Of a stretch of DNA of 64,000 nt, positions 1 through 20,417 are shown piece after piece (positions within the stretch are counted from its first letter, which is position 1; the number at the start of each line of letters is the position of its first letter). The translations under genes and the position numbers were made by a program. This DNA is from Escherichia coli (GTDB lineage Bacteria > Pseudomonadota > Gammaproteobacteria > Enterobacterales > Enterobacteriaceae): the NCBI RefSeq assembly GCF_024502345.1, contig NZ_JALDNN010000001.1. One strand, 5' to 3'. Below the pieces are notes generated by a model that made no database searches, was not told where the DNA came from, and saw only the letters and a list, made by a program, of their open reading frames with translations.

Positions 1-644
1 TGACCGTGCATCGCAAGCTGAGCAATCAGCTTGGAGACGTGCTGAGGTGTGAAGAACTCCCCTCCAGACTTACCGGCATTTGCCGCATAGTTAGAAATCA
101 GGAACTCGTAGGCATCACCAAACAGGTCAATCTGGTGCTCGTTAAAATTCCCCAGGTTAAGCCCTTCAACGCCTTTCAGAACGGCGGCAAGACGGCTGTT
201 TTTGTCTTTAACTGTGTTACCCAGTCGATTGCTGGTCGTATCGAAATCGGCGAACAGGCCTTTGATGTCGGCCTCGGACGGATAGCCGTAGGCAGAGCTT
301 TCTATAGCGACGAAGATACTATTTAAATCAGCATTCAGCCTGTCGTTGGTGTTCGCTTTAGCGGCAACGTTGCAGAACAGCTGGCTCGGGTAGATGAAAT
401 AGCCTTTAGTCCTGATGGCATCGTCTTTGATGTCATCGGTAATGATGCTGTCATCAAGTGCTGCATAATGTATGCTCTCATCCCCTGCTTCCATGTAGCT
501 GGAAAAATTCTCACTGATGAAGCGGTAGAAAAGTGCACCGAGTACATACTGTTTAAAATCCCATCCATCTACTGAGCCCCTGACATCATTGGCAATGGCC
601 CAGATTTGACGGTGTAGCTCTGCACGCTGTTGAAGGCTTGTCAT
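1..644 (-). CDS. hsdM: Type I R-M DNA methyltransferase subunit HsdM, 5' portion only (gene runs off the window start)
   Basis: Minus-strand frame reads [15 protein letters not shown]...; near-identical at nucleotide level to 58480..59122 of the complete hsdM; start codon (cat on + strand) at 642..644. Confidence 0.85.
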
Positions 645-847
645 TTTGTATCCTGTTGTATGATTCTTAAGTACTGTTATTGGCCCGATTTTATCGCAAT
701 TTCATATGGATGACAGGCTTTGTATGTCATGCGTTGCACTGAGAGTTCGTTTGCCCGGTTGTGTAGCCAACACTCTTTCAGTCAGGCCAGTAGAAACGTT
801 GCGCTGACGATAAATACTGAAGCCCCAATACCATCGGGGCTGAACGT

Positions 848-2725
848 TCAGTCGGTGAGAATTTCTTCATCCGTATCCATTGTGGATGGTGATGAATCTA
901 TTTTTGTTGTAAGAAATACCCGATTCAGTAGTCTTTGCTTCAGGGCGTTTCTTCGCTCATTGTAGAATTCCGGGAAGTGACTGAACTCAATATTTTCATC
1001 TGAAACTAACAGCATTGATGGCGAATAGTTGTTTGATGGCTGAGATAGCCATTGTTTCAGGGAAGTATCCTGTTTACTTATATTCTGAGAGTGATTCAGT
1101 AAATGAAGATTCGGTATGGTGTCCCAGTATTCCGGATTTTCATAAAAGCTGAGCTTCTCAGGTGAATTCGCAATATAATCTAGTTTTTCAAGATATTTCT
1201 TTGAAAAATGATTTCTTGGGTGAAGGTGATCAATATGAAATACCTCGGTTGGATTCATTTCAGGGAACAGAAGATGCAATAGTGCGCGGCAACGACCTTC
1301 GCCATATCTGATATTGAGAAGGCTTTCGATGTATTCGTCGTCAAATCTGAGGTCTTTATTCGAGCCTTTATATCTGTCAATAATCTTTTCAAGAGGAAAG
1401 TGAATATCTGAAAGACTATTTTTCATTACCTCTCTGATACTCGTGAGTAGCGCATCTGCCTGGCTTCCAAAGATCCCTTTCAGAAGTACCATGTAAAACC
1501 ACTGGCTAATTACTGAGCGTTCATTGTGGTTTTTATTCAGGAGGTTAATCGTTGTATATAATGGATGTCCACTGGTTTGCTTTTTGTAAAGCCAGTAGAC
1601 CACAGGAATGACTGCATTTTTAGATATCAAAGACTGTGGATTGATGCCGAATCGCCTGATAAGAATAAAGGTCTCCTTGATACAGGATTTTATTTCAGAC
1701 CATTGTTGTTGTATCTTACCGACCTCCTCTGAAGTGAAGTTTTTTACTTTGAACCGGACGTCAGAGTCAATAAGCATCAGGCTGGTTTTTAAGAACCAGT
1801 CTCTTTCAATATAAAAACCCATTTCATTATTCTGATAAATGTTTTTTGTCAGTTCATCCAGTTCTCTTCTGAAATCCCCCTGCCAGTGCGCTACCGCTAT
1901 TGACATCAGTAAGTCTGAAAACTCAAGTTTTGTCCCCCCGCTGTTCGTGCGGATGAAAACATCCAGCACATGATCAATGTCCTGACTGCTCTCATTGAAG
2001 TAGTGGATAAGATTCTCAGTTCTTATCTTGGTATAAAGTTTAAGCAGAGTTTTTCTGGAAAATTCACTGGAAATGAGATCTCTTTTTTCAAGTTCTGGTA
2101 CGACAACGTTAAATAAAATATCATCAGGCGAATCATGTTGCTCGTATTTGAATATTTCGTGCAGGCAGAACCAGTGATGTTTGTTGTCTGTAAGTGAATC
2201 AGCGTATTGCTTGTCGGTCAGGAACCTGAAGTTATACTTCATCATGAGTTCGTCGTCTGACTTAAGTGGCGCGGTTAAATCGACGTAAAGCTTTCTGGGC
2301 GGCAGGATGCGATCATCCTGTGCCGAAGGCCACCACATCCGGGGCTGTTTATACGCATACGTTCCACACAATCCAATATATAATGATGTGAGACGCTGCT
2401 GACCATCAATCACCGCTTTGAAATCATGAAATCCAGCATTTGTTGCTACGCAGGGGTTTTCTTCATTAAATCGCTGACAGTATTCTTTCAGGAATTCATA
2501 GAATTTGTAATCATTTTTAATACTGGCACTACGGATATCCCACATCATGAAAGAGTTTATCGGGTAGTCTCGCATGATGGAATCAAACAGCAAACATATC
2601 TGACTGCTGCTCCAGACGAACTTCCTCTGAATTGCAGGCAGAAGATAGTGGCGTAAATTAATTGAATCTATCGCTTGTTTTATCGTTATTGCTTTTTCAT
2701 ACTGGCCAGCCATCATAAACCTCAT
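848..2725 (-). CDS. DUF262/DUF1524 two-domain nuclease, GmrSD-like (putative modification-dependent Type IV restriction enzyme)
   Basis: 625-aa ORF with N-terminal DGQQR motif (DUF262/ParB-like) and C-terminal HIDHLHP His-Me finger motif (DUF1524); sits between hsdM and the WYL-regulator module. Confidence 0.6.
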   Translation of the reverse strand: MRFMMAGQYEKAITIKQAIDSINLRHYLLPAIQRKFVWSSSQICLLFDSIMRDYPINSFMMWDIRSASIKNDYKFYEFLKEYCQRFNEENPCVATNAGFHDFKAVIDGQQRLTSLYIGLCGTYAYKQPRMWWPSAQDDRILPPRKLYVDLTAPLKSDDELMMKYNFRFLTDKQYADSLTDNKHHWFCLHEIFKYEQHDSPDDILFNVVVPELEKRDLISSEFSRKTLLKLYTKIRTENLIHYFNESSQDIDHVLDVFIRTNSGGTKLEFSDLLMSIAVAHWQGDFRRELDELTKNIYQNNEMGFYIERDWFLKTSLMLIDSDVRFKVKNFTSEEVGKIQQQWSEIKSCIKETFILIRRFGINPQSLISKNAVIPVVYWLYKKQTSGHPLYTTINLLNKNHNERSVISQWFYMVLLKGIFGSQADALLTSIREVMKNSLSDIHFPLEKIIDRYKGSNKDLRFDDEYIESLLNIRYGEGRCRALLHLLFPEMNPTEVFHIDHLHPRNHFSKKYLEKLDYIANSPEKLSFYENPEYWDTIPNLHLLNHSQNISKQDTSLKQWLSQPSNNYSPSMLLVSDENIEFSHFPEFYNERRNALKQRLLNRVFLTTKIDSSPSTMDTDEEILTD

Positions 2726-2786
2726 ATGTTATATTAGCTGGCCTATTTTAATTTATTGCGTGTCGGTAGTACAGTCTTTGCACAAA

Positions 2787-3116
2787 CTAATTTATGCAAT
2801 GGAAAAGCTGACGGCTCGGTTTGTGTTTTTCATTCGGGTAGACTCGCATTGCGGATGCACAAAGTGATGAAACCTGTCTTGCTATATTTTTACCGAAGTT
2901 AACAAGAAGGCCGTGCTTTATTTTTTCACCCTCTGCCCTGATGCTGATGATAAAGCTGAACTGATATACGATTACCTCAATGAGGTCATTGCCAAATGTT
3001 ATAATGGCGGCGTTGTTTATTTCATGTTCATAATCCCTCAGGTCAGTGTTAAGTCTTGCTGTTGCATCTACAAGTGCGTATTCTTTATCGATAATCATAA
3101 CTTTCTCACTTATCAT
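2787..3116 (-). CDS. hypothetical protein (109 aa), paralog of 60147..60482
   Basis: ORF co-directional with and 40 bp downstream of the WYL regulator gene; conservative substitutions versus its paralog; no strong SD, and an overlapping + strand ORF exists, so strand assignment is tentative. Confidence 0.45.
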   Translation of the reverse strand: MISEKVMIIDKEYALVDATARLNTDLRDYEHEINNAAIITFGNDLIEVIVYQFSFIISIRAEGEKIKHGLLVNFGKNIARQVSSLCASAMRVYPNEKHKPSRQLFHCIN

Positions 3117-3156
3117 GTTAATGTGATTTAATCATCACTAATAATATGTTGTGATT

Positions 3157-3870
3157 TTAATTACGATTATTCGTCTGTTTACTCCCGTAATGCATTATCT
3201 TATGAATAATGTTCATGTGGGGTAAGGCTTCCATAAAGTCAGACTGTTCAATCAGCGAAATGAGTGTGTTATCGATCTCAAACGTTGTATCCGGTAATAC
3301 CTCAACCAGCCTGATTCGGGACAGGGAAATAACGAACACGCCCGATGACGTACATCCGGCAAGAAACCACTCCGCATGGCTGCAAAGCAGACGGTAGGGA
3401 TGAACGGTATGGCTGACGTTTTCGTCGGTTCTGATACGCACCTGGGTCTGGTTAAGTATGGCGAGCGTCAGTCTGCTGAAATCACCGAAAAGGGTGGGTT
3501 TCTGGCGCGGCTCCGGTAGCATAATCCTGTATGGCGAGGGACGTTCCCCGTCAAGCATCAGGCTCAGTAGTTTGGCATCCATCGCGGGTAACAGACGGTC
3601 AAGATGCAGCAACCTCGCCAGTATCTTCATATCCCGTTCCGTGCGGCGACGAAAGTAATGTGAGGCAAGCTGATACACGCCGTTGCTCTGTTCAATATCA
3701 AGGTAGGTCAGACGGACGTTGAAATCCCGTCGCAGCGTTCGCGTCGTCACTCCAAATTCTTCTGCCAGCGTCCCGATATGCAGCTTTTCACCCTGAAACA
3801 AACGGCTCAGGATGATGGAAAGGCGGGTTGCCAGTCTGTCATGTTCGTTTTCTTGTGTTATCAGCGTCAT
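3157..3870 (-). CDS. HTH-WYL domain transcriptional regulator (YfjR/BrxR-like architecture)
   Basis: 237 aa; N-terminal HTH (LAEEFGVTTRTLRRDF) and central W-x-L-type motif (HAEWFLAG); differs from paralog 60523..61236 at about 3 residues. Confidence 0.6.
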   Translation of the reverse strand: MTLITQENEHDRLATRLSIILSRLFQGEKLHIGTLAEEFGVTTRTLRRDFNVRLTYLDIEQSNGVYQLASHYFRRRTERDMKILARLLHLDRLLPAMDAKLLSLMLDGERPSPYRIMLPEPRQKPTLFGDFSRLTLAILNQTQVRIRTDENVSHTVHPYRLLCSHAEWFLAGCTSSGVFVISLSRIRLVEVLPDTTFEIDNTLISLIEQSDFMEALPHMNIIHKIMHYGSKQTNNRN

Positions 3871-3972
3871 ACATCATTTCCGAATTTAGCCGGGAAATGA
3901 TGCCAGCAGTAGCGGACAGGATTTGTCCGCCCTCTGAAGTTTTTTAAAGTCTGAATACCTTAAATGTAAGTG

Positions 3973-4288
3973 CTAAACGTCAGTATTCTCAGGTGAATAA
4001 AGATGCTTCTGGCGCATGTAGGCAATAAAAATGCAGGATGGTAGCGTCACCCGGTATGCGGGACCGGCTAAATCAATCAGCAGCCAGAGAGAACTGAGCA
4101 CCCAGCCCACGGGACCGGCAAAAGCGCCCATGGTACGCGTCAGCATGGCATTTCCTGCAACGGTCAGCCCTCTGCCTAACAGGGCTTTCGCCACACCATT
4201 TGTGACAACAAGTGCCATCTGATAGGCCGCAAACCCGGATGTTTTAATCCCCGCCTGGATTGCCATGGTCAGCAGCTCCGGCGTGGGA
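3973..4288 (-). pseudogene. 3' fragment of the 249-aa module protein (paralog of 61339..62088), truncated at a recombination junction
   Basis: Nucleotide homology to 61339..61660 ends abruptly near 4288; only the C-terminal ~100 codons remain. Confidence 0.6.
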
Positions 4289-4289
4289 T

Positions 4290-4562
4290 TGCTGTATCGC
4301 AGACGATACCGAGCAGGAGATACCAGCCATCATCAAGTGCGGTGACGTATTCCGGGTTAGCCAGTGCCACTGCCAGCAGCGGGTCTTCGGGGAGTGTGTC
4401 ATCGTGGTTGAGATGCCAGAGCAGGGTTCCCGTTTCGTTCCAGAAGGCGGTAAACAGGTCGATATCATCGACAGGGCCAAGGATTTCATTGCTGAGGGCC
4501 ACCAGTGCGGAGGCGGGCAGGTTGAGAAGGGGAAGACTGGTGGGAGTCGTGAGTTTAAACAT
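4290..4562 (-). pseudogene. 5' fragment of an unidentified gene fused to the junction at ~4288
   Basis: Start ATG at 4562 (MFKLTTPTSLPLLNLPASALVALSNEILGPVDD...); reading frame runs into the junction and ends in non-homologous sequence. Confidence 0.3.
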
Positions 4563-5081
4563 GATTATCTCCATAAGTAATTGATTCATATTGATAATAT
4601 GTTTTCAAATGACTTTTAGTTACATTTTTTTTACGTTGTTTGCTTATTTTGGATTATGTCCTTAAATTTAGTAGTGGGCTGGCGTTAAATCCCGTTTTTT
4701 TTCCGATTTGCAGCATTTTGTAAGCAAATTAGCATGAGCTGTTTTAACTGAAAATGAGAGAAGGCTTGCGCACAATTGCTATTGATTTTCTTACTTATTT
4801 TCTCAATCACAAAACGCCTTAAATAGTTCAAAAAACAATCAACACCCCATAATCGATATTATTTATGGGGAGAAACGACGTTTAAGCCTGAAAGTGGGGG
4901 AGTGGCACTTTCAGGAGATTAAGGAGGCAAACAGGCCTCTTTAACGCGTGTTTTTCTCACCAAAATGTCAGAGTCGGTGATTTGCACTTCAGTATTTCTG
5001 CCAATACTATTCGCTCCATGTGCTGGCCAGCATCTAACTCAATACCCTTAATCTGTATTAATTGAGCGAGATGTATGCATT

Positions 5082-6404
5082 ATGAAACCCGATAGTTCTT
5101 TAAACCAAATAACGCAGACAATGAAACGGAATGATGTTGATTCTGTGGATAGTCGCTTTTTTGAGTCAGCGCAAAACATGAAAACCAGCGTTGACGTTGA
5201 AGATTGCTGCGTTGAAGTGATGGTTCGACATCACAGCCCAAAGAATCAAAGAGAGGCATTCACTAAAGCTTTTTTTGATGAGTGTAAAATCCGTGCAGTA
5301 CAAACTGGCCGGACTATCGAAGCCAGCGATACAAAATGTACCGGGCTTAAGGCTATATTCCACTCATCCGGACGCATTAAGTTTATTGTCCGCAAAAGTA
5401 TTCGCGGAAAGAATGTTTACGTTGCAGTAGGAAGTTACCCTGAATTTTCCATTAATAACGCAAGGGAACATGCCTTTAAAATAATTCAGGAGCTTAAGGC
5501 TTCCGTTGAGACTTATGGTGAGCGTTTTCTTACGCACAGCAAAATAACGTTTAATGAACTTGTGGAACAGTATGTGAAATGCGTACTTAACACGGGCGTT
5601 AAGCGTTCAGCTAACACCGACCTTTCTAAGATCCGTAAATACCTGCGCCCTCTTCTCGGTGACAAAAAGCTGGCAGGTATGACGGAGGCAGATGTTCTGA
5701 GCTATCTACACGATCTCGATCTTAAGCCTGCCACACGCAACCGCCACCTGGCGCTCATTAAAGCGGTCTTTACCTGGGCTATACGCATGGGATACACCAG
5801 CCGCTCTCCGGCGCTTTATATCAAAGCGCTGCCTGAAGTGACGTCAGATCGCCGCGCCATGGATGACTCCCAGCTTCAGCGCTGGATGGAAGTCTGTGAG
5901 TGCTGGCGTAATGGTAAACCCGATCATGAAGCCCTTGCTCTGCTCATGTTCCTTGCCCTGACGGGGCTGCGTCTGGGGGAAACCCGTCACCTTCGTCTTG
6001 AAGATGTGGACTGGAGCCGCAAGGTTATCACCCTTCGCCATACCAAAAACGGCAAACTCCGCCGTGTACCGGTATGTGATAAGGCTTTCGTTCTTCTGAC
6101 AGAACAGCGTCAGCATCTGGGTGATGAAGGCTGGGTATTTCCGGGCAAGGGGACCGACAATCCGGTTTCTGAGCCGCGTCGCCTGCAAAAACGGCTTTGT
6201 GAGGCTGCGGGTATTCCACCGTTCACCATCCATGAGATGCGCCATACCTTTGCGACAAAACTCATTGAGAGCGGGGCCGACATTCACACCGTCAAAGACT
6301 TACTGGGCCACAGCACTATCAAAGTGACGGAGCTTTACTTGCACGCTTCCCCGGCGCGTTACCACGAAGCTGTTAACCGGGCGATGAATGTTTTTCCGGC
6401 CTAA
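5082..6404 (+). CDS. tyrosine-type site-specific recombinase (phage/island integrase)
   Basis: 440 aa; catalytic-domain motifs GLRLGETRHLRLEDVD, HEMRHTFAT and LLGHSTIKVTELYLH (R-H-R-Y signature). Confidence 0.8.
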   Translation: MKPDSSLNQITQTMKRNDVDSVDSRFFESAQNMKTSVDVEDCCVEVMVRHHSPKNQREAFTKAFFDECKIRAVQTGRTIEASDTKCTGLKAIFHSSGRIKFIVRKSIRGKNVYVAVGSYPEFSINNAREHAFKIIQELKASVETYGERFLTHSKITFNELVEQYVKCVLNTGVKRSANTDLSKIRKYLRPLLGDKKLAGMTEADVLSYLHDLDLKPATRNRHLALIKAVFTWAIRMGYTSRSPALYIKALPEVTSDRRAMDDSQLQRWMEVCECWRNGKPDHEALALLMFLALTGLRLGETRHLRLEDVDWSRKVITLRHTKNGKLRRVPVCDKAFVLLTEQRQHLGDEGWVFPGKGTDNPVSEPRRLQKRLCEAAGIPPFTIHEMRHTFATKLIESGADIHTVKDLLGHSTIKVTELYLHASPARYHEAVNRAMNVFPA

Positions 6405-6476
6405 ACAGAATTCCCCCTCAGGCAAGTGAGTTCTGCGCTTTACTGCCTGTGGTTCACATTCAAAAGGAACCTGTAA

Positions 6477-7172
6477 ATGAATAATAAATCAACACCATCC
6501 CCCTTGACTACAACGACCCCCGCTCGTTTTGCCTGCAGGAAATTAAATGCATTTCTGGCTCGTCGTGCTCTTCATATGAAGGTGGTAAGAAAAAACCTGA
6601 ACAAGGCTGCTGCAATCGACATCGATCTCGATGACATTTCTAAGTGCGGATGCCGTGATGGTCTGCCTGAAGGCTTTGTCAATACTGCAAAAGGGCTTTT
6701 CTATTATGAAGGAAAAAAATGGTACCAGTTAAGCTCGACCCCCATTCTCCCTGTCTACAGGCATTATTCTGATTGTAAAACGCGCAATATGGGCGTCGAG
6801 TTGATGACTATCAACCATGCTGGAGAGTTCGCCTGTGCTGATGTCTCATTAAGTGATGCAATGGTAAAACCTGATCACGTCATGGCTTCTCTGGCGGGCA
6901 AAGGTTTTGGTATCTCCCTGACGATAAAGTCTAAAGAGCTTCTGGTGCAATTCTTACAGGTGTGTATGAAGAAATCGCTGGAATTGCCTACTTATCTTGT
7001 CGCAGATTCGATGGGTTTTGTGCCTGGCAACAAAGCATTTCTTCACGGCAGTATACCTATCGCGCAGCACCTTTTGGAATTTGACTATTTGATTCCGGCT
7101 TCCCGTGTTCCACGAGGGCTTGTCGAGTCGGGAACGCTGGATGACTGGAAAACGATGGTACCTGTGAAATGA
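6477..7172 (+). CDS. hypothetical protein, possibly 3'-truncated island gene
   Basis: 231-aa ORF directly downstream of the integrase; its 3' end overlaps an opposite-strand ORF, suggesting a deletion junction. Confidence 0.35.
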   Translation: MNNKSTPSPLTTTTPARFACRKLNAFLARRALHMKVVRKNLNKAAAIDIDLDDISKCGCRDGLPEGFVNTAKGLFYYEGKKWYQLSSTPILPVYRHYSDCKTRNMGVELMTINHAGEFACADVSLSDAMVKPDHVMASLAGKGFGISLTIKSKELLVQFLQVCMKKSLELPTYLVADSMGFVPGNKAFLHGSIPIAQHLLEFDYLIPASRVPRGLVESGTLDDWKTMVPVK

Positions 7173-7468
7173 ATCCATTCTGATTCACCGAAGTCACTGG
7201 TCTGGTGTGACAGCGAGTACAGCCAGGCGTTATCCTTTTCCGTGATATGTGCGGTACTGCAGCGTATGCCGGCAAGGGTTGCAAACGGTGGTAGTGTGCA
7301 GGTTGACTGTTGGTCGGATTCCTCCACCACGCGGAGTGAATAACCGTTTTCAGCGACCTTGTTAATCAGTTCAGTGAGATTAACACCATCGACATCAACG
7401 ACAATTCGCCCCATGTTCAGTGCCTGCACATTAATGCTGTCGGCTTCCAACGTCAGGGCCAGTTTCAT
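7085..7468 (-). CDS. hypothetical small protein downstream of the yfjR-like gene; real extent uncertain
   Basis: ORF starting MKLALTLEADSINVQALNMGRIVVDVDG...; distal part overlaps 6477..7172 on the other strand and is probably not genuine. Confidence 0.3.
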   Translation of the reverse strand: MKLALTLEADSINVQALNMGRIVVDVDGVNLTELINKVAENGYSLRVVEESDQQSTCTLPPFATLAGIRCSTAHITEKDNAWLYSLSHQTSDFGESEWIHFTGTIVFQSSSVPDSTSPRGTREAGIK

Positions 7469-7577
7469 TGTTTCGCCTCCGGATGCTTCCCCTGGGTAAT
7501 GTTATTTACCGTTCTGTAGTTATCGCGGGTCATCAGGCCGGTTGCCCTGCGAGCCCGGAGAATATCAATACTGTTTA

Positions 7578-8228
7578 TTAACTGAGAGCGGGTAAGGACT
7601 GAATAAATCCCGGGTCTTCAACAAGACGACACAGACTGTCGTTACGCCGGAAAGTCTCCTGCAGGGGCTGAACCAGATGGATTTCATCCAGGGAGAATAC
7701 GGCGATATGTCCGTCGTGCTCTGCCACCAGATACCAGGCCTGCTGGTGGATAAGTAACCGGCAGGGAGCCAGCCGCTCACAGCGCTGCCCCTCGGCAATC
7801 AGAGTCACCCGCCTGCGCCCGGTAATGGCCTGAATCAGTCGCCAGAAAGACAATGCGCCTGATGGCGAAGGAGCCGGACTGGCGGGTGCGATTACGCAGG
7901 GAGACTCATCGCACATCAGCAGTGCGTTTACCAGACGACGGTCAAAGCCAGGGAAAAGACCGGCCATCCCGCTGCGGTGGGCAAAGATAAGCACGTCGGG
8001 CACCATCTGCGTCTCACTGCCCGCAGTGCGTAAGCGGTAATATCCGGACTGATACTCCAGGTCCAGATACATCAGCCGCTCACGAAAATCACGCCGCAGC
8101 GTGCGCACCGACACACCAAACTCAGCGGCAAGCTTACGCACACTCAGCGTTTCCCCTGCCACCAGACGGCTGATTATCAGTGACAGCCTGACAGCCAGCC
8201 GGTCATGGCGGCGTTCTGCCTGTGTCAT
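7578..8228 (-). CDS. yfjR: HTH-WYL regulator, YfjR-like (CP4-57-type island)
   Basis: 216 aa; HTH ([16 protein letters not shown]) plus AWYLVA motif; lies downstream of yfjP/yfjQ-like genes in the order recalled for E. coli CP4-57. Confidence 0.7.
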
Positions 8229-8444
8229 GAGACGTTCTCCGTGAAAGTTAACTGACTGAAAATGATGTGATTACTTTAAAGAGGGGGTCGGACAGGGTAT
8301 GGACACCACAGAAACTATTTTTCATTTCTGCAAAAGCCAGAGGCAGCGGGGGTTACAGGCCTTCCCTCGGTGAGTGAGGACCGTCAGCACGGTGCGATGC
8401 GGACAGGTGGTGTCCGATATTAACAAAGCAGCAACATTAAACGG

Positions 8445-9266
8445 TCACTGCAGTTGCGTGAGCAGGGCTTCCGCCATCACCCACAGTGCCCGGTTAAGTT
8501 TCACGTCCCCGTCGATACCGCGAACGGCACGGGTATGTGACCGTCCTCCTTTGGCATTACGGCCACTGAGCCCGCCCTTAATCAGGTTCTCCTGAATACG
8601 CTGGTACGTGGTCCACAGGTCATTGCTCTCATCCTGCCAGCGGCGAGGGGAGAGGATCTGCGATTCAGTCACCGGCTGGTGGTCTTCACCAAAGCGGTAT
8701 GTGAGGGCGGCTTTTGCCAGTGCCTGCTGTGCCGGGGGTGGCAACAGCAACGACTGCATGGCATCCCGTTTCTCCTCCACCCGGTCAAAAATCCCCAGCA
8801 CCTCATACGCGCCTTCAATCACCTGACTCACCACGTCCCCCTTGTGTGGCACCCGCACCTCGCCAAACGACTCACCGCAGACGAGCCCGTTCTGACAAAC
8901 CGCACGAAATAGTCCCGGCAACATCTGATACGAACTAGTGCCATCGTGGGAGTTGAGCAGGATAATTTCTGGTACCTGTTTACCGGTAATCTGCCCCTCA
9001 CGCCGCAGACGCAGCATATGCTTTGTATGTTCACGACGACCGGGGTCACGCACGCGGGTCTGACAGGCAAAGAATGGCTGGAAGCCTTCTCGCTGTAGGC
9101 TGTCGAGCAGGGAGATGGTAGGTATATAGGTATAACGCTCACTGCGGGATTCATGTTTGTCCTCGCTGAATACACTGGGCACCACGCGAAACAGCTCCTC
9201 ACGGGTTAACGGGCGGTCGCGACGGATAAGGTTTGCTGCGCCAAAGCGCGAAGCCAGACGGGTCAT
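8445..9266 (-). CDS. yfjQ: DUF932-family protein, YfjQ-like
   Basis: Start moved to internal ATG (MTRLASRFGAANLIRRDRPL...) which has a GAGGAG SD; sequence closely matches recalled YfjQ. Confidence 0.75.
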   Translation of the reverse strand: MTRLASRFGAANLIRRDRPLTREELFRVVPSVFSEDKHESRSERYTYIPTISLLDSLQREGFQPFFACQTRVRDPGRREHTKHMLRLRREGQITGKQVPEIILLNSHDGTSSYQMLPGLFRAVCQNGLVCGESFGEVRVPHKGDVVSQVIEGAYEVLGIFDRVEEKRDAMQSLLLPPPAQQALAKAALTYRFGEDHQPVTESQILSPRRWQDESNDLWTTYQRIQENLIKGGLSGRNAKGGRSHTRAVRGIDGDVKLNRALWVMAEALLTQLQ

Positions 9267-9357
9267 AAGCAGACTCCTCATAATGGGAAAACAAATAAAA
9301 GAAATCCCCGTCGCATCGGCGACAGGGTTAGGGAAATAACAGGGATGGGTTAAATAC

Positions 9358-10221
9358 TCAGAAGAAGAAATCCCAGACGGCACGGGCCACTGACACCACG
9401 GTGGTGCGCACGGCCTGAATGACGGCCCGCACCGGGGCGGGGATCAGGGGAAAGGCACTGATGCTATCGAGTACAGCACCGACGGTTTCACCAAAATCGC
9501 TACGCGCCTGTTCCCGGACTACCGTCGTGCGAAAGGAAGGCTGGAGTTGCGACACCACCGGGCTGGTGGCCTCACGTGGCAGGCACTTAATCATTCGCTC
9601 GGCCATCACCCGCAGTCCCCACTGAAGACGGACCGACACGGCACACACTGGATGTACGGGCTGGAACAGCTCATGCAGCAGGCAGATTTTGCGGCTGATA
9701 TTCTGCTTCTGCGCCGTGGACAACTGTCCCCCACCGCTGGTAGGTTCGGCCTTATCCGACTGGCTGATAACAAACAGCACCTTATGCCGGTATACCTCTC
9801 CAATCACCTGATGATAAAAATGTTCATCCACCGTCAGCGCCCGGTCATCGGCCTTAATCAGCCACAGTACCAGGTCGAGGCGAGGAAGCTGTTCGCGGTA
9901 CAGCGCAGCATACTCGGTATCGCGAGCACCACTTTCGCCCACGCCGGGCAGATCCATCAGCGTTATATAGCGGTCGCCAACCTGCAGGCGAAAGCGCAGT
10001 GGCTCACGTGTACAGGCCGCCACATCGCTGACCGGTGATACCTCACTGGCAAACAGGGCATTGCAGAGTGAGGATTTACCGGCACCGCTCTTACCCATAA
10101 TGCCGATCACTGGCTCGTAGCGGGTTAACTGATTTATCTGCTGCAATATACGTTCAGACACCCACTGTGGCAGACCAGCGAGCGATTGCTGAAACGGCTT
10201 CAATCCTTCAGAATTGTTCAT
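9358..10221 (-). CDS. yfjP: island-associated GTPase, YfjP/YeeP/YkfA family
   Basis: Walker A GKSGAGKSSLCNALF; start placed at MNNSEGLKPFQQSL with GAGGAG SD. Confidence 0.8.
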   Translation of the reverse strand: MNNSEGLKPFQQSLAGLPQWVSERILQQINQLTRYEPVIGIMGKSGAGKSSLCNALFASEVSPVSDVAACTREPLRFRLQVGDRYITLMDLPGVGESGARDTEYAALYREQLPRLDLVLWLIKADDRALTVDEHFYHQVIGEVYRHKVLFVISQSDKAEPTSGGGQLSTAQKQNISRKICLLHELFQPVHPVCAVSVRLQWGLRVMAERMIKCLPREATSPVVSQLQPSFRTTVVREQARSDFGETVGAVLDSISAFPLIPAPVRAVIQAVRTTVVSVARAVWDFFF

Positions 10222-10327
10222 TACTACTCCTCTGAAAAATAATACAAAAACGGCAGAATCGTGAGATTCCACCGTTAATCTGGTATGTTCAAAGGGATGA
10301 TATATATCTGAAAATTATTAACTTGAT

Positions 10328-11254
10328 CTACTTTTTGTCTTTTTTACGTGATGAAACAGCCTGCAGCCAAGCATGCTTCATTTTCTGAATAAAGAAATAT
10401 TTTTCTTCAACTCCAGTGTCCCAACTATCCATGCATGCAATGATCATCTGTATTCTCATTGCAGTGTTATATGGTTTTAAATAAAAGGGGATCATATTTT
10501 TATTTCTCAGATACTCCCAGCAATAGATAGCTTGCTTTTCATCTTTTTTATCTAGCCAGTCATAATCAGTAAGAAATGTATTATATTGCTCTAGCCATTT
10601 ATCATGCAACTTACGAAAATAGGAAATTTTCTGACTTAAACTTACAGGAGCTAAATCAATAAACCTCATCAAAGTACAAATGCGTTCTTGTTCGGATGTT
10701 GTATTCGGGCTGTAGTTGTCGGGATCTGCGCCAGATGTTAAATAAAATCTACGCGAGTATTTTTCAGGTATATCTCTATTTTTTTCTTTATTGCTAGGGG
10801 AGGTTCCCACCTGCATTTCGGCTTGTACTTCATCAAGTGAGAAATTTTTAATTTCATCAATGTTTATAAATTCAAAAAAGGATGCAGGAGTTGAGTTCGG
10901 GTTGTAAATATTATCTTGTGCAAAGATATTCACGCTCGAGGAGGTTTCAGGACTGATTCTGTTGTTATATATATACATTAAGGCAAACCACGATCCTCTA
11001 TCAGAACCTTTGAAACAATCGAACTTCTCTTTGTCAATGATTTTGTAATGGAACTGTTTTTTCAAGTAAGTACGCGCACTTTGTATTGCTTCATTATTGA
11101 ATAGGAATTTAGTGTTCAATATATGATTAATGAGTTTTTGAAATTCCTCAGGCGTGTCGAAATTACTCGCCTGCTTAATGTAATCTTCGTTGTAATACAG
11201 ACTCAGAACGTAAAGGGAAAAGAACTCCTCTCTCACTTCGTCATACCTAAGCAT
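10328..11254 (-). CDS. hypothetical protein (308 aa), AT-rich orphan gene
   Basis: Long uninterrupted ORF in visibly AT-rich DNA immediately upstream of the yfjP-like GTPase; no motif recognised. Confidence 0.5.
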   Translation of the reverse strand: MLRYDEVREEFFSLYVLSLYYNEDYIKQASNFDTPEEFQKLINHILNTKFLFNNEAIQSARTYLKKQFHYKIIDKEKFDCFKGSDRGSWFALMYIYNNRISPETSSSVNIFAQDNIYNPNSTPASFFEFINIDEIKNFSLDEVQAEMQVGTSPSNKEKNRDIPEKYSRRFYLTSGADPDNYSPNTTSEQERICTLMRFIDLAPVSLSQKISYFRKLHDKWLEQYNTFLTDYDWLDKKDEKQAIYCWEYLRNKNMIPFYLKPYNTAMRIQMIIACMDSWDTGVEEKYFFIQKMKHAWLQAVSSRKKDKK

Positions 11255-11572
11255 GTACCCTCCAGTGTGATATCACATCTGTCCGATGCTTTCAAAAGTA
11301 TAAATGAACCATGATGATTTGGCATCTGCAAGGTGACTGTTGACTGGTTTTTTGCTGATTTTTTAATGATAAAGTAGTGATTACTAACTGATTAGTAAGT
11401 GATTAATGGCTGGTTGCCTCCTGTGATTTTTCTGCCTCTGGTAAATTGGGGGAGAGTACTGATCAACTCACCACTCTGAATAATTTTCATGATTGCACTC
11501 TACAAAGTTTCGACATCCGTCAAATTGTAACGGTCAGAGAACAGCGTTACACGAGGTTTTCCGTATCTATGC

Positions 11573-12629
11573 GGCTTTGTTGAATAAATCGAACTTTTGC
11601 TGAGTTGAAGGATCAGATCACGTATCTTCCCGACAACGCAGACCGTTCCGTGGCAAAGCAAAAGTTCAAAATCACCAACTGGCCCACCTACAATAAAGCC
11701 CTCATCAACCGTGGCTCCATAACTTTCTGGCTGGATGATGAAGCTATTCAGGCCTGGTATGAGTCAGCAACACCTTCTTCACGAGGCAGACCTCAGCGCT
11801 ATTCTGACCTTGCCATCACGACTGTGCTGGTCATTAAACGCGTATTCAGGCTGACCCTGCGCGCTGCGCAGGGCTTTATTGATTCCATTTTTTCTCTGAT
11901 GAACGTTCCGCTACGCTGCCCGGATTACAGCTGTGTCAGCAGGCGGGCAAAGTCGGTTAATGTCAGTTTCAAAACGCCCACCCGGGGTGAAATCGCACAC
12001 CTGGTAATTGATTCCACCGGGCTGAAGGTCTTCGGTGAAGGCGAGTGGAAAGTCAAAAAGCATGGCCAGGAACGCCGCCGTATCTGGCGTAAGCTGCATC
12101 TCGCCGTTGACAGTAAAACACATGAAATCATCTGCGCTGACCTGTCGCTGAACAACGTTACGGACTCAGAGGCCTTCCCCGGGTTAATCCGGCAAACCCA
12201 CCGGAAAATCAGGTCAGCCGCCGCCGATGGCGCTTACGATACCCGGCTATGTCACGATGAACTGCGGCGTAAGAAAATCAGCGCGCTTATCCCTCCCCGA
12301 AAAGGTGCGGGTTACTGGCCCGGTGAATATGCAGACCGTAACCGTGCAGTGGCTAATCAGCGAATGACCGGGAGTAATGCGCGGTGGAAATGGACAACAG
12401 ATTACAACCGTCGCTCGATAGCGGAAACGGCGATGTACCGGGTAAAACAGCTGTTCGGGGGTTCACTGACACTGCGTGACTACGATGGTCAGGTTGCAGA
12501 GGCTATGGCCCTGGTACGAGCGCTGAACAAAATGACGAAAGCAGGTATGCCTGAAAGCGTGCGTATTGCCTGAAAACACAACCCGCTACGGGGGAGACTT
12601 ACCCGAAATCTGATTTATTCAACAAAGCC
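11573..12629 (+). mobile_element. IS903-group insertion sequence (IS5 family), 1057 bp
   Basis: Terminal inverted repeats GGCTTTGTTGAATAAATCG at 11573 and its complement ending at 12629; internal sequence matches recalled IS903; flanking 9-mers differ (no target-site duplication). Confidence 0.9.
11605..12573 (+). CDS. IS903 transposase
   Basis: 322-codon ORF filling the element; DDE transposase of the IS903/IS102 type; ORF track start is a TTG codon. Confidence 0.9.
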   Translation: MKDQITYLPDNADRSVAKQKFKITNWPTYNKALINRGSITFWLDDEAIQAWYESATPSSRGRPQRYSDLAITTVLVIKRVFRLTLRAAQGFIDSIFSLMNVPLRCPDYSCVSRRAKSVNVSFKTPTRGEIAHLVIDSTGLKVFGEGEWKVKKHGQERRRIWRKLHLAVDSKTHEIICADLSLNNVTDSEAFPGLIRQTHRKIRSAAADGAYDTRLCHDELRRKKISALIPPRKGAGYWPGEYADRNRAVANQRMTGSNARWKWTTDYNRRSIAETAMYRVKQLFGGSLTLRDYDGQVAEAMALVRALNKMTKAGMPESVRIA

Positions 12630-13024
12630 ACTGTGTTTATCAAATTCCATGCCCTTTTTGCTGCTTAATTTTAAATGACACTCTGATCATGCACCGTGAT
12701 TGAAATAAGTTATAGCCACCCCTTAATCATTTTTTTCAGACGACATTAACTTCGGAGTAAATAATTTAACACAATGAAATATCAAACCGCATCTGGCCTG
12801 AATGTTGAGTATTAATACGTGACGGATTGTTAATATATATCAGTACATAAACCCCAATATTCCAGTAATACACACCTACACAATACACACCAAGCAATTT
12901 AGTCAGCATCACCCAACTAACATCCAACACAAACTCAATAAGCCAGATTTGATACCACCTAATTACCTCAACCATCGCGGGTAAGGTTCCGTCCTGCCCG
13001 ATATTCAGATCACAGGAATCTATT

Positions 13025-13636
13025 ATGCTTAATGATATTTATCTTGACCAACGTCATGCCCCATTCAATACAACGTATTTGCAACGGATGCTGGGTGTAA
13101 TTGATAACGCTATAGCACAACACCCAAGGACAATGGCTGTCCGTGTCGATCTACGTCTGCCTGATGACAACTGTAATAGGAATAGTGGTCTGATATCCCG
13201 TTTCATTGAATCGCTTAATGCAAAAATCGATGCTCGGTACCGAAATAAAATAAAGAATGGCATCAGGAGCTACCCATGCCAGTTGCGTTACGCCTGGGTT
13301 CGGGAAGTGGGAGAAATAAACGAGAAGTCCCATTACCACATGGTACTTTTCGTGAACAAAGACACATTCAATGGACTTGGGAGCTATGGAGAAGGGGGAA
13401 CGGGATTAGCCAGCCTGATACGTGAAGCCTGGCTGAGCGCTTTGCAACTAGGCCCTTACCCCGAATACCGAACGTTGGTCCACATCCCGGACAACCCATT
13501 GTATTACCTGGACGTCAATAATTTAGACTACAAAACGGTTTACGATAAACTCACTTTCAGGCTGAGTTATTTTGCGAAAGAGCGCACCAAGTCATACAGC
13601 CGAGATGAACGCTCGTTTGGCTGCAGTCAGTCCTGA
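13025..13636 (+). CDS. YagK/YfjJ-family (inovirus Gp2-like) island protein
   Basis: 203 aa starting MLNDIYLDQRHAPFNTTYLQRM...; family typical of CP4-type islands (recalled similarity). Confidence 0.6.
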   Translation: MLNDIYLDQRHAPFNTTYLQRMLGVIDNAIAQHPRTMAVRVDLRLPDDNCNRNSGLISRFIESLNAKIDARYRNKIKNGIRSYPCQLRYAWVREVGEINEKSHYHMVLFVNKDTFNGLGSYGEGGTGLASLIREAWLSALQLGPYPEYRTLVHIPDNPLYYLDVNNLDYKTVYDKLTFRLSYFAKERTKSYSRDERSFGCSQS

Positions 13637-13941
13637 GGCAAAACAAACTAAGTCTATAAAGATTTTTTCAGCCTGGCTCTAATCGACTGAATCTCAGCAT
13701 ACTCCGCTTTTGAAGCCTTGACACGTCAGTTGTTCTTTCACCTCTGAGTGGCTACTCGCGACTGCCTGCAGGAGACTGATTATGTTATTGACCGCAAAAT
13801 CCATTAACTGACTTTTCGACTTAATCTCCTTAAGTTATGTGAGAAATTTGCCGATATGAAAACATGATCCTCCAGTCGCTACTGACATGCCCTGTCAGTA
13901 GCGACTGGTAATCTCAAGGAAAAATTACAAGGAGAACGCGC

Positions 13942-14170
13942 ATGAGCGGGCATGAGGTAATGGTACAAAGAATAACCGCTATTATTGCAGAACTTTACCA
14001 GTACGGTTTTGTATCACGTAAGAAGATGATGGACGAATTCAACATCAGTGAGCGTACTTTGTATCGTGATCTTAATCGTCTGGGCGACAGAATCGTCCCC
14101 GATGGTGATGGTATTTACAGGCTGGCTCCCGCTTACGCTAAACCTCAGGCTCTAAAAGAACAACAAAATC
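13942..14170 (+). pseudogene. N-terminal HTH fragment of a YfjR-like regulator, truncated at the junction with appC
   Basis: Frame encodes ...MMDEFNISERTLYRDLNRL... then runs out of frame into appC sequence at ~14170. Confidence 0.4.
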
Positions 14171-15133
14171 TCGGCCATGTTTATTATGGCGATCAGCGCC
14201 TGGTATTTACTGCGCGGACGGGAGCGCGATGTCGCATTACGCTCGTTTGCCATCGGTTCCGTCTTCGGTACTCTGGCGATTATTGGCACGCTGCAACTCG
14301 GAGACAGTTCTGCGTATGAAGTCGCGCAAGTACAACCGGTAAAACTGGCGGCGATGGAAGGGGAGTGGCAAACGGAACCTGCACCTGCACCGTTCCATGT
14401 GGTTGCCTGGCCGGAACAGGATCAAGAGCGTAACGCCTTTGCCATCAAAATTCCCGCGCTGCTAGGGATCCTCGCCACTCACTCATTAGATAAACCCGTG
14501 CCGGGTCTGAAGAATTTGATGGCTGAAACCTACCCACGCTTGCAACGCGGACGTATGGCCTGGCTGTTAATGCAGGAAATATCGCAAGGCAATCGTGAGC
14601 CGCATGTGTTGCAGGCATTCCGGGAACTGGAAGGTGACCTGGGCTACGGCATGTTGCTCTCCCGCTATGCGCCGGATATGAATCATGTCACAGCCGCACA
14701 GTACCAGGCGGCGATGCGTGGTGCAATACCTCAGGTTGCGCCGGTATTCTGGAGTTTCCGCATCATGGTGGGCTGTGGTTCCCTGCTGCTACTGGTGATG
14801 CTGATTGCGCTTGTCCAGACGCTGCGTGGCAAAATCGACCAGCATCGCTGGGTGCTGAAAATGGCGCTCTGGAGTTTGCCGTTGCCGTGGATTGCGATTG
14901 AAGCCGGGTGGTTTATGACCGAGTTTGGTCGTCAGCCGTGGGCGATACAGGACATCTTACCGACATACTCCGCGCACTCCGCCTTAACCACAGGACAACT
15001 GGCTTTCTCACTGATCATGATCGTAGGGCTTTACACCCTGTTCTTAATCGCCGAAGTCTACCTGATGCAGAAATATGCCCGTCTGGGGCCGAGCGCGATG
15101 CAGAGTGAACAACCGACGCAGCAACAGGGGTAA
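14170..15133 (+). pseudogene. appC: cytochrome bd-II ubiquinol oxidase subunit I, 5'-truncated (C-terminal ~320 codons only)
   Basis: Protein from ...AMFIMAISAWYLLRGRER to ...SEQPTQQQG matches the C-terminal part of AppC; upstream sequence is island DNA. Confidence 0.85.
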
Positions 15134-15144
15134 AGGAGAAAATC

Positions 15145-16281
15145 ATGTTTGATTATGAAACATTGCGCTTCATCTGGTGGCTGCTGATTGGCGTGATCCT
15201 GGTGGTCTTTATGATCTCCGACGGATTTGACATGGGGATCGGCTGTTTGCTGCCGCTGGTGGCGCGTAATGATGATGAACGCCGGATAGTGATTAATAGC
15301 GTTGGTGCGCACTGGGAAGGCAATCAGGTCTGGTTGATCCTCGCAGGTGGGGCATTATTTGCCGCCTGGCCCAGAGTGTATGCAGCGGCGTTTTCCGGCT
15401 TTTATGTGGCGATGATCCTGGTGCTGTGCTCGCTGTTCTTCCGCCCGCTGGCCTTTGATTATCGCGGAAAAATCGCCGATGCACGCTGGCGTAAAATGTG
15501 GGATGCCGGTCTGGTCATCGGCAGTCTGGTGCCGCCGGTAGTCTTCGGTATCGCCTTCGGCAACTTGTTGCTCGGCGTGCCGTTTGCCTTCACACCGCAA
15601 TTACGCGTGGAGTATCTCGGCAGCTTCTGGCAACTGCTGACGCCATTCCCTTTATTGTGCGGATTGCTCAGCCTTGGGATGGTGATTTTGCAAGGTGGCG
15701 TCTGGTTACAACTGAAAACTGTTGGTGTGATTCATCTGCGTTCACAGCTGGCGACTAAACGCGCTGCACTGTTGGTGATGCTGTGCTTTTTGCTGGCGGG
15801 TTACTGGCTGTGGGTCGGTATTGATGGCTTTGTACTGCTCGCCCAGGATGCTAACGGTCCTTCCAATCCGTTAATGAAACTGGTGGCAGTGCTACCTGGT
15901 GCCTGGATGAATAATTTTGTCGAGTCGCCCGTTTTGTGGATCTTCCCGCTACTGGGGTTCTTCTGCCCATTGCTGACGGTGATGGCGATTTATCGTGGTC
16001 GCCCGGGTTGGGGATTTTTGATGGCATCATTGATGCAATTTGGCGTGATTTTCACGGCAGGCATCACGCTGTTCCCCTTTGTCATGCCGTCAAGCGTGAG
16101 TCCAATCTCCAGCCTGACGTTGTGGGACAGCACTTCCAGTCAGCTGACGCTGAGTATTATGTTGGTAATCGTGCTGATATTTTTGCCCATTGTGTTGCTC
16201 TACACTCTCTGGAGCTACTACAAAATGTGGGGGCGCATGACGACAGAAACTCTCCGCCGTAACGAAAACGAGCTGTACTAA
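15145..16281 (+). CDS. appB: cytochrome bd-II ubiquinol oxidase subunit II
   Basis: 378 aa, [21 protein letters not shown]...; SD AAGGAG upstream. Confidence 0.9.
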
Positions 16282-16293
16282 GGAGCAGGAACA

Positions 16294-16386
16294 ATGTGGT
16301 ATTTACTTTGGTTCGTCGGCATTTTGTTGATGTGTTCGCTCTCCACCCTTGTGTTGGTATGGCTGGACCCGCGATTGAAAAGTTAA
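16294..16386 (+). CDS. appX: cytochrome bd-II accessory small membrane protein
   Basis: 30-codon ORF MWYLLWFVGILLMCSLSTLVLVWLDPRLKS between appB and appA with SD AGGAGCAGGA. Confidence 0.7.
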   Translation: MWYLLWFVGILLMCSLSTLVLVWLDPRLKS

Positions 16387-16465
16387 CGAACGTAAGTCTG
16401 ATGCGGCGCATTAGCGTCGTATCAGGCAATCAATAATGTCGGATATGAAAAGCGGAAACATATCG

Positions 16466-17764
16466 ATGAAAGCGATCTTGATCCCATTTTTATCTCTTCT
16501 GATTCCGTTAACCCCGCAATCTGCATTCGCTCAGAGTGAGCCGGAGCTGAAGCTGGAAAGTGTGGTGATTGTCAGTCGTCATGGTGTGCGTGCCCCAACC
16601 AAGGCCACGCAACTGATGCAGGATGTCACCCCAGACGCATGGCCAACCTGGCCGGTAAAACTGGGTTGGCTGACACCGCGCGGTGGTGAGCTAATCGCTT
16701 ATCTCGGACATTACCAACGCCAGCGTCTGGTAGCCGACGGATTGCTGACGAAAAAGGGCTGCCCGCAGCCTGGTCAGGTCGCGATTATTGCTGATGTCGA
16801 CGAGCGTACCCGTAAAACAGGCGAAGCCTTCGCCGCCGGGCTGGCACCTGACTGTGCAATAACCGTACATACCCAGGCAGATACGTCCAGTCCCGATCCG
16901 TTATTTAATCCTCTAAAAACTGGCGTTTGCCAACTGGATAACGCGAACGTGACTGACGCGATCCTCAGCAGGGCTGGAGGGTCAATTGCTGACTTTACCG
17001 GGCATCGGCAAACGGCGTTTCGCGAACTGGAACGGGTGCTTAATTTTCCGCAATCAAACTTGTGCCTTAACCGTGAGAAACAGGACGAAAGCTGTTCATT
17101 AACGCAGGCATTACCATCGGAACTCAAGGTGAGCGCCGACAATGTCTCATTAACCGGTGCGGTAAGCCTCGCATCAATGCTGACGGAGATATTTCTCCTG
17201 CAACAGGCACAGGGAATGCCGGAGCCGGGGTGGGGAAGGATCACTGATTCACACCAGTGGAACACGTTGCTAAGTTTGCATAACGCGCAATTTTATTTAC
17301 TACAACGCACGCCGGAGGTTGCCCGCAGCCGCGCCACCCCGTTGTTGGATTTGATCATGACAGCGTTGACGCCCCATCCACCGCAAAAACAGGCGTATGG
17401 TGTGATATTACCCACTTCAGTGCTGTTTATCGCCGGACACGATACTAATCTGGCAAATCTCGGCGGCGCACTGGAGCTCAACTGGACGCTTCCAGGTCAG
17501 CCGGATAACACGCCGCCAGGTGGTGAACTGGTGTTTGAACGCTGGCGTCGGCTAAGCGATAACAGCCAGTGGATTCAGGTTTCGCTGGTCTTCCAGACTT
17601 TACAGCAGATGCGTGATAAAACGCCGCTGTCATTAAATACGCCGCCCGGAGAGGTGAAACTGACCCTGGCAGGATGTGAAGAGCGAAATGCGCAGGGCAT
17701 GTGTTCGTTGGCCGGTTTTACGCAAATCGTGAATGAAGCACGCATACCGGCGTGCAGTTTGTAA
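16466..17764 (+). CDS. appA: periplasmic acid phosphatase/phytase AppA
   Basis: Signal peptide MKAILIPFLSLLIPLTPQSAFA, histidine acid phosphatase motif RHGVRAP; start placed at ATG 16466 rather than ORF-track start. Confidence 0.9.
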   Translation: MKAILIPFLSLLIPLTPQSAFAQSEPELKLESVVIVSRHGVRAPTKATQLMQDVTPDAWPTWPVKLGWLTPRGGELIAYLGHYQRQRLVADGLLTKKGCPQPGQVAIIADVDERTRKTGEAFAAGLAPDCAITVHTQADTSSPDPLFNPLKTGVCQLDNANVTDAILSRAGGSIADFTGHRQTAFRELERVLNFPQSNLCLNREKQDESCSLTQALPSELKVSADNVSLTGAVSLASMLTEIFLLQQAQGMPEPGWGRITDSHQWNTLLSLHNAQFYLLQRTPEVARSRATPLLDLIMTALTPHPPQKQAYGVILPTSVLFIAGHDTNLANLGGALELNWTLPGQPDNTPPGGELVFERWRRLSDNSQWIQVSLVFQTLQQMRDKTPLSLNTPPGEVKLTLAGCEERNAQGMCSLAGFTQIVNEARIPACSL

Positions 17765-17774
17765 TGCATAAAAA

Positions 17775-17800
17775 AGAGCATTCAGCTACCTGAATGCTCT
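17775..17800. terminator. bidirectional stem-loop between convergent appA and etk
   Basis: Perfect 11-bp inverted repeat AGAGCATTCAG / CTGAATGCTCT with 4-nt loop, preceded by an A-run. Confidence 0.5.
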
Positions 17801-17883
17801 GAGGCTGATGACAAACGAAGAACTGTCTAATGCGTAGACCGGAAAAGGCGTTCACGCCGCATCCGGTCACTTTACCTTCAGTT

Positions 17884-18578
17884 TTACTCTTTCTCGGAGT
17901 AACTATAACCGTAATAGTTATAGCCGTAACTGTAAGCGGTGCTGGCGCGTTTAATCACACCATTGAGGATAGCGCCTTTAATATTGACGCCTGCCTGTTC
18001 CAGACGCTGCATTGACAAGCTCACCTCTTTGGCGGTGTTCAGGCCAAAACGCGCAACCAGCAGGCTGGTGCCGACAGAGCGCCCCACGACCGCAGCATCG
18101 CTCACCGCCAGCATCGGCGGCGTATCGACAATCACCAGATCGTAATGGTCGTTCGCCCATTCCAGTAATTGACGCATCCGATCGCGCATCAGCAGTTCAG
18201 ACGGGTTAGGTGGCATCTGACCGCGAGTAATCACATCAAAGCCTCCTTTGCCAAAATGCTGGATCACTTTGTTGAGCTCATCTTTACCTGCCAGATATTC
18301 CGACAAGCCATGTGCATTACTCACGGTAAACAGGTTATGCGAATAACCATGGCGTAAGTCGGCATCAATAAATAACACTTTTTGATCGGACTGGGCGATC
18401 ACCGCTGCCAGAGTTGAACTGACAAATGTTTTACCACTGTCTGGCGTCGCACCGGTGATCATCAGAATGTTATTCTCAGTCTCCATCATAGCGAAATGCA
18501 GACTGGTTCGTAGCGCACGTACGGCTTCCACAGCAGAATCCGCCGGGTTATCCACCGCCAGGAAGGGGATATTTTTAG
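17884..18578 (-). pseudogene. etk: tyrosine-protein kinase Etk, 3' fragment truncated by IS5
   Basis: Encodes the C-terminal BY-kinase domain with Walker A GKTFVSSTLAAV and Tyr-rich tail YSYGYNYYGYSYSEKE; coding sequence abuts the IS5 end at 18579. Confidence 0.8.
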
Positions 18579-19773
<1,195 letters not shown>

Positions 19774-20368: not shown

Positions 20369-20417
20369 CGTTGATACCGCTCTGGCCCACAGCGCCAGAG
20401 CGGTTTTCCATCCTGCC

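Follow-up and report, generated by a model that had tools for sequence, protein, structure and literature searches.

JukA, formerly YaaW, is the sensor of the Juk defence against phiKZ-like jumbo phages, and the most frequent neighbours of jukA are genes for WYL-domain proteins and restriction-modification genes (bioRxiv 10.1101/2022.09.17.508391). JukA homologues with other partners exist, and some of them act without JukB (bioRxiv 10.1101/2022.09.17.508391). A second precedent is the gene-decay scars that microhomology deletions leave in tRNA-associated islands of E. coli, such as pheV/pheU islands and cryptic elements of the CP4-57 type. The locus described here resembles both: it holds two copies of a predicted Juk-like module, one of them broken by an internal deletion at a very short microhomology, and its tandem island array at a tRNA-Phe site contains truncated genes, IS copies, several P4-type integrases and att repeats that are partial. 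It differs in nothing substantial from other decay scars of E. coli islands, the one oddity being that three deletions of its lineage fall on TA dinucleotides and two have a breakpoint in common.

The window, a stretch of 64,000 nucleotides of E. coli contig NZ_JALDNN010000001.1, carries an intact 249-aa gene near its right end and the remnant of a second copy near its left end. By its sequence, the 249-aa protein is a member of the JukA (jumbo-phage sensor) family. As in Juk systems, the right-hand protein has a DUF3944 domain (PF13099, E = 1.4e-9, residues 4-38) ahead of a Cbp3-like body (PF03981, Ubiq_cyt_C_chap, residues 58-228), matches the PADLOC JukA model end to end, and adjoins a WYL regulator and restriction-modification genes. 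Unlike in Juk, PADLOC found no JukB homologue among ten module proteins of the reference locus L002 and the window neighbours, and the candidates for a putative partner, if any exists, are the WYL-HTH protein and a small variable protein. A further difference is that the left copy, presumably dead, is reduced to the C-terminal 43% of the protein; an anti-phage role of this family member is a prediction. The Escherichia jukA operon construct of the Juk preprint, whose start is given in the supplement, opens with an XRE gene unlike anything in the window (bioRxiv 10.1101/2022.09.17.508391). E. coli K-12 YaaW (UPF0174) lies in the same Pfam/NCBIfam neighbourhood and has the DUF3944 domain, but the window protein is only distantly paralogous to it and is encoded on a mobile island and not at the chromosomal yaaW locus. 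RefSeq names some 249-aa orthologues 'YaaW family protein', and the match to NCBIfam PRK10236 is sub-threshold (92.8 bits against a cutoff of 395) with the library label 'acidic protein MsyB', not YaaW. The features on which the comparison rests are as follows.

848..2725, minus strand: DUF262/GmrSD-family protein (PADLOC HEC-05), cargo of the left module; Pfam GmrSD_N, 2e-33.
3157..3870, minus strand: HTH-WYL regulator, intact, directly downstream of the JukA remnant; Pfam HTH_DeoR and WYL, and PADLOC WYL in homologues.
3973..4296, minus strand: left JukA/YaaW (DUF3944) remnant, codons 143-249 and the stop, 100% identical to the right copy residues.
4295..4296, no strand: deletion junction, a TA dinucleotide attributable to either parental site (2-nt microhomology).
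4269..4562, minus strand: chimeric 97-aa open reading frame, residues 1-89 of a conserved 117-aa hypothetical protein followed by 8 out-of-frame codons.
4563..5081, no strand: AT-rich spacer between the divergent 117-aa and integrase genes, GC 0.32-0.40.
5082..6404, plus strand: tyrosine integrase with a P4-type domain set (Pfam Phage_integrase, Phage_int_M, Arm-DNA-bind_3).
6477..7160, plus strand: truncated DUF927 gene, about 228 of 643 codons, ending at a second deletion junction (TA, 7159-7160).
61339..62088, minus strand: intact right paralogue, 249-aa JukA/YaaW family; PADLOC JukA E = 1.5e-72, positions 4-239 of 245.
61663..64000, minus strand: right counterpart of the DNA missing on the left, from open reading frames and Pfam matches of the L002 homologues.

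Self-comparison of the window aligned the left and right module copies without gaps over 1,505 nt (2792..4296 with 60158..61662, 97% identity), and a second shared block joins 1..720 to 58479..59196 at 93%. The inner part of the first block is identical (3202..4296 and 60568..61662, 0 mismatches in 1,095 nt), and a base-by-base alignment of 3850..4700 with 61216..62150 gave 447 identical columns followed by random-level similarity right after 4296. The homologies on either side of the break have BLAST E-values of 0, far beyond chance. The original prediction had homology to the right-hand 249-aa gene ending at ~4288; the end itself is real, and identity drops to background slightly past that point, the true break lying at 4296|4297, an immaterial 8 nt further on. 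In L002, the parental sites read CTGTA|GCCTG on the JukA side and CGTTA|TCGCA on the side of the 117-aa gene, and the window reads CTGTA|TCGCA; the TA at 4295-4296 is all that the two sites have in common, with no longer in-register repeat. One breakpoint falls between codons 142 and 143 of the JukA/YaaW gene, and the other lies 2.76 kb upstream on the same strand, in codon 90 of the 117-aa gene. Colinear parental sites on the same strand and in the same order, a 2-nt overlap, and the lack of repeats or mobile-element ends together identify a microhomology-mediated (illegitimate) deletion.

The intact arrangement is present in other E. coli. A query with window 3900..5100 matched 114 of 5,426 complete RefSeq genomes at ~97% from 4295 on; among the matches listed, every alignment begins at window 4295 (query position 396), and none of the 5,426 genomes has an alignment that runs on through the junction. 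A total of 64 complete genomes contain window 1..4700 in full, and in the 25 of these that were listed it lies in two pieces spanning ~7.46 kb (~7,458 bp) instead of 4,700. The offset to L002 is +20,000 up to 4296 and +22,758 from 4295, a difference of 2,758 bp that corresponds to L002 24297..27054, so the earlier reading of the join as a deletion junction was right, the window being without 2,758 bp that intact genomes possess. The right copy is gap-free and colinear with L002 as well (60158..64000 with 22792..26634, 96.9%).

Three annotated references (L001, L002 and L015) give the contiguous gene order: DUF262, small protein, WYL regulator, DUF3944/YaaW, 128-aa protein, DeoR, LRAT, DUF2787, 143-aa protein, 117-aa protein, spacer, integrase and DUF927. 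This order occurs in E. coli MMC-J-0020, and also at pheV in NCTC_13148 and at pheU in WCHEC025943. In MMC-J-0020, the module genes lie on the minus strand, among them a 249-aa DUF3944 protein, a 237-aa HTH regulator and the 117-aa product WP_053287389.1, and the integrase and DUF927 genes are divergent from them across the AT-rich spacer. With the order contiguous in the references, both the 117-aa gene and the integrase belong natively beside the module, and what sets the window apart is an internal loss of 2,758 bp. The lost DNA, and with it the two breakpoints, is fixed by these comparisons: it comprises residues 1-142 of JukA/YaaW, five whole genes (a 128-aa hypothetical, a 79-aa DeoR-like HTH protein, an LRAT/NlpC-P60-like protein, DUF2787 and a 143-aa hypothetical) and residues 90-117 of the 117-aa protein. 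Of the five lost genes and the 117-aa gene, none of which has a known function, three match PHROGs of unknown function. On the right, 61663..64000 still holds the 5′ part of JukA, the 128-aa, 79-aa DeoR-like, LRAT/NlpC-P60-like and DUF2787 genes and the start of the 143-aa gene region, where the window ends.

The direction of change is established by two comparisons. Full-length 249-aa JukA homologues match the PADLOC model end to end, and the remnant matches only positions 149-240 of 250 (E = 6e-29); the 117-aa protein, for its part, is full-length in E. coli, Edwardsiella, Citrobacter and Pantoea. Judged by these sequences, the long form is ancestral, which makes the difference a deletion in the window and not an insertion elsewhere. 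The truncation of the left copy had been foreseen correctly: codons 143-249 and the stop remain, without the N-terminal DUF3944 (PF13099) domain that lay in the deleted residues 1-142 and without ~60% of the Cbp3-like domain, and the only hydrophobic segment of JukA is retained. The callable reading frame in this remnant runs over 3973..4266, starts at the internal Met153 and encodes 97 aa; the fragment is already annotated at NCBI, for example as MCQ7033450.1.

What lies beyond the break had been described as the 5′ part of an unrelated gene with its ATG at 4562, and this is borne out: the gene is unrelated in sequence to JukA and contributes residues 1-89 of its 117-aa protein, full versions of which were found in complete E. 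coli genomes. The gene's own DNA in the window is 4297..4562, or 89 of 117 codons. The 117-aa part of the chimera ends in GIVCD, followed by TAIPRRSC read from JukA DNA and a TGA stop at 4271..4269. The fusion is out of frame, and the chimera stops 2 nt ahead of the ATG of JukA Met153, where the second 97-aa reading frame begins. GGAG motifs, in the chimera a Shine-Dalgarno sequence upstream of the ATG at 4562, lie 6 nt and 9 nt ahead of the two starts, and both frames are picked up by gene callers. Exact matches to the chimeric protein are WP_060659202.1, KUG78441.1 and MCQ7033451.1; the products of the deletion are thus already known in RefSeq as hypothetical proteins. The lost C-terminal 28 residues (90-117) are the most conserved part of the 117-aa family, with 13 invariant positions. 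The 117-aa protein has no Pfam, NCBIfam or PADLOC match, its only match being PHROG 32947, of unknown function, and an AlphaFold2 model from a 13-sequence alignment has a mean pLDDT of 44.9. Other truncated, frameshifted or chimeric alleles of the gene occur in public data (loci L016 and L017, protein P0024), from which it follows that this small gene decays repeatedly.

The next features to the right are also as had been proposed, an AT-rich region (GC 0.32-0.37 over 4500..4900) and then an integrase. The spacer is colinear at ~97% with E. coli MMC-J-0020 and others and is a native neighbour of both flanking genes. A scan of 3700..5300 gave no Rfam family and no meaningful promoter or terminator, and the spacer has no consensus promoter. 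It also has no tRNA-Phe-like repeat (att site), the sole copy in the window being at 52242..52266. The integrase is above curated cut-offs for PF00589 (E = 8.6e-32) and PF22022 (28.1 bits, cutoff 27) and just under them for PF13356 (23.7 bits, cutoff 27) and PF02899 (21 bits, cutoff 22.3); its start in the reference annotation corresponds to ~5121.

The allele is rare. An identical 80-nt junction is present in all ten of the fetched contigs that encode the chimera (13 on record), which come from NCBI assemblies GCA_001484235.1 and GCA_001484085.1, Logan runs and ENA assemblies; population frequency and age of the allele thus refer to ~13 draft or metagenomic contigs. The flanks of these contigs differ. 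Five carriers (L004-L008) are colinear with the window only to ~7160 (megablast to 7180, divergence placed at 7160|7161), and L010 is colinear throughout, second junction included. In L009, a Multi_ubiq/ThiF/BubE cluster replaces the GmrSD gene, and the WYL and small-protein genes have 28 mismatches; in L012, the integrase allele is only 96.5% identical to that of the window. The junction core is unchanged in both, over 3900..4544 in L009 and over 4105..4645, the part that it covers, in L012, and carriers show no sequence variation there. The same 80-nt junction in ten independent contigs with differing flanks demonstrates an inherited allele, not an artefact. The junction was found in none of the 5,426 complete RefSeq E. 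coli genomes, including the 114 with the locus, nor in JGI metagenome contigs by an exact 34-nt search. The scar is a single inherited event that was later moved into different backgrounds by recombination.

The window as a whole is a tandem island array at a tRNA-Phe (pheV/pheU) site, in which the left module extends from the window start to ~7160 and is followed by a CP4-57-like island and then by the right module. The original prediction took the 4296 junction for the place where the left defence locus abuts the CP4-57-like island, and in this it was mistaken: the two sides of the junction are contiguous, 2.76 kb apart, in 64 complete genomes, and since CP4-57-like homology begins at 7159, the meeting point is 7159-7160. 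There, DUF927 is fused to the island's DUF5983 gene, itself truncated at the C-terminal end (reading frames 6477..7172, plus strand, and 7085..7468, minus strand). The integrase-DUF927 region of E. coli WCHEC025943 and F11 shares 99.9% identity with window 5000..7164, and the CP4-57-like island (7159..52290) matches other strains at 99.9-100%, carries genes past 7160 that include DUF5983, CbtA, WYL and antirestriction genes, and has its own integrase at its end (50782..52044). The 3′ 49 nt of a tRNA-Phe lie at 52242..52290 on the minus strand; the window holds no full tRNA, and strain G3/10 has the complete pheV there. This stretch, an att remnant, forms the divide between the CP4-57-like island and the right module. 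The neighbours of the JukA-family gene in the window are the WYL-HTH regulator, the small variable protein, the GmrSD-type DUF262 gene (HEC-05; the L002 homologue scores 1.1e-230 against this PADLOC model) and a type I restriction-modification system. The corrected map thus takes the left module through integrase and DUF927 to ~7160 and starts the CP4-57-like island from there.

These observations are very probably explained by one fairly old event of illegitimate deletion that took 2,758 bp out of the integrase-proximal gene cluster of a tRNA-Phe (pheV/pheU) type island. The ends are joined at the 2-nt TA, linking JukA codons 142/143 to codon 90 of the 117-aa gene, which beheads the former gene and cuts the tail off the latter. 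From the intact start of the 117-aa gene, the out-of-frame fusion gives a chimera of 89 plus 8 residues, with the Met153 reading frame following. Both remnants are probably non-functional pseudogene fragments and the left Juk-like unit is probably dead, so that the right paralogue, 57 kb away, would be the only functional copy in the window. In practical terms, 3973..4562 would be better annotated as two pseudogene fragments than as two 'hypothetical proteins', and one of two Juk-like (YaaW-family) modules in this array has presumably been inactivated. The scar is of little importance in itself; the TA deletions and the reused breakpoint are the one aspect that might point to something new.

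That the join merely marks an island boundary, with the 117-aa fragment, spacer and integrase belonging to the CP4-57-like island, might be suggested by an integrase adjoining the junction and by CP4-57-like genes (DUF5983, WYL, antirestriction) within 3 kb. Yet intact references have the JukA module side by side with the 117-aa gene, spacer, integrase and DUF927, L001, L002 and L015 are without CP4-57-like genes nearby, the segment 5000..7164 is nearly identical to genomes with an intact module, the similarity of the CP4-57-like island to other strains starts no earlier than 7159, and this island brings an integrase and a tRNA-Phe att remnant of its own, leaving this account scant probability. 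The chance that an assembler produced the join is negligible: the junction coincides with the point where the 1,095 bp of perfect identity to the right copy run out, as a chimeric join at the end of a 1.1-kb exact repeat of two copies would, and it is in no complete RefSeq genome, but assemblies from different samples and pipelines reproduce the same 80 nt in ten independent cases, and a graph assembler cannot generate a join from a 2-nt overlap. It is also very unlikely that the remnant pair, the 89+8-aa chimera and then the C-terminal 97 aa of JukA, is functional and kept by selection, for example through a possible modulating effect on the downstream WYL/GmrSD genes or on the intact Juk-like paralogue. 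The allele is unchanged in several backgrounds with reshuffled flanks, the GGAG motifs and the stop-2nt-ATG arrangement would allow translational coupling, and the JukA fragment keeps the only hydrophobic segment of the protein; against this, the JukA fragment has lost the DUF3944 domain and the larger part of the Cbp3-like domain, the chimera is without the invariant C-terminal block of its family, the allele is absent from all 114 complete genomes with the locus, and carriers show no variation by which purifying selection could be gauged.

Besides the 4296 junction (D1), the allele family has the 7160 junction (D2) and, in L004-L008, a third (D2′), a 1.5-kb deletion relative to WCHEC025943 in which the same DUF927 TA is joined to a TA at the end of a DUF4102 fragment. 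All three deletions join two TA sites and keep one TA, so that each of the five breakpoints, one of them reused, lies on a dinucleotide that makes up 4-5% of those in these regions. D2 and D2′ are likewise in none of the 5,426 complete E. coli genomes, so the three junctions are confined to one lineage. That the lineage's two other deletions are on TA too is awkward for a mechanism of purely random microhomology, and the pattern hints weakly at some preference for sites; the verdict stands all the same. It is unlikely that the deletion was made by an activity specific for TA, transposase-like or otherwise selective of its sites, in place of random slippage or end-joining: the five breakpoints have no transposon ends, inverted repeats or motif in common beyond TA, no IS630-type element was identified at the sites, there are three events only, of which two are not independent, and other decayed alleles of the 117-aa gene (P0014, P0022) break elsewhere than at TA, one contig resembling a metagenomic chimera. 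It would be quite improbable that TA-specific excision of ordinary chromosomal DNA produced lineage-restricted deletions, or else that the remnant pair is a selected neo-operon modulating the intact paralogue. The preferred reading remains a single microhomology-mediated deletion.

Several observations concern the modules and the island beyond the junction. The 1,095-bp identical tract has the same haplotype in other junction carriers and six differences from L002 (0.5%); gene conversion between the two copies in the window was considered as a possible source of it. Next to the tract, 2792..3201 and 60158..60567 differ at 45 of 410 nt (11%), with a sharp switch to 0 in the adjoining 1,095 nt, and the divergent stretch takes in the greater part of the 109/111-aa gene together with the final codons of the WYL regulator. 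The step at 3201/3202 reflects either a hypervariable small protein beside a conserved core or a recombination boundary. Past JukA, WYL regulator and small protein, the cargo varies, with GmrSD/HEC-05 on the left (848..2725), unrelated short reading frames on the right (59178..60100), and an M78 peptidase/HTH pair plus the Multi_ubiq/ThiF/BubE cluster in L009 (2942..6626); the slot looks like a site at which defence genes are swapped.

To the right of the att remnant, 52563..52946 repeats a 48-nt unit (16 codons) about six times in tandem and lies in a region homologous to a stretch of L002 with a '5-fold beta-flower protein' gene upstream of hsdR. The CP4-57-like island contains two IS pairs in direct orientation (27320..27619 with 50015..50314, and 18692..18991 with 42265..42564), for which references suggest IS1 (the 100% pair) and IS5-like ISKpn26 (the 96% pair), and these pairs are potential substrates of further deletions.
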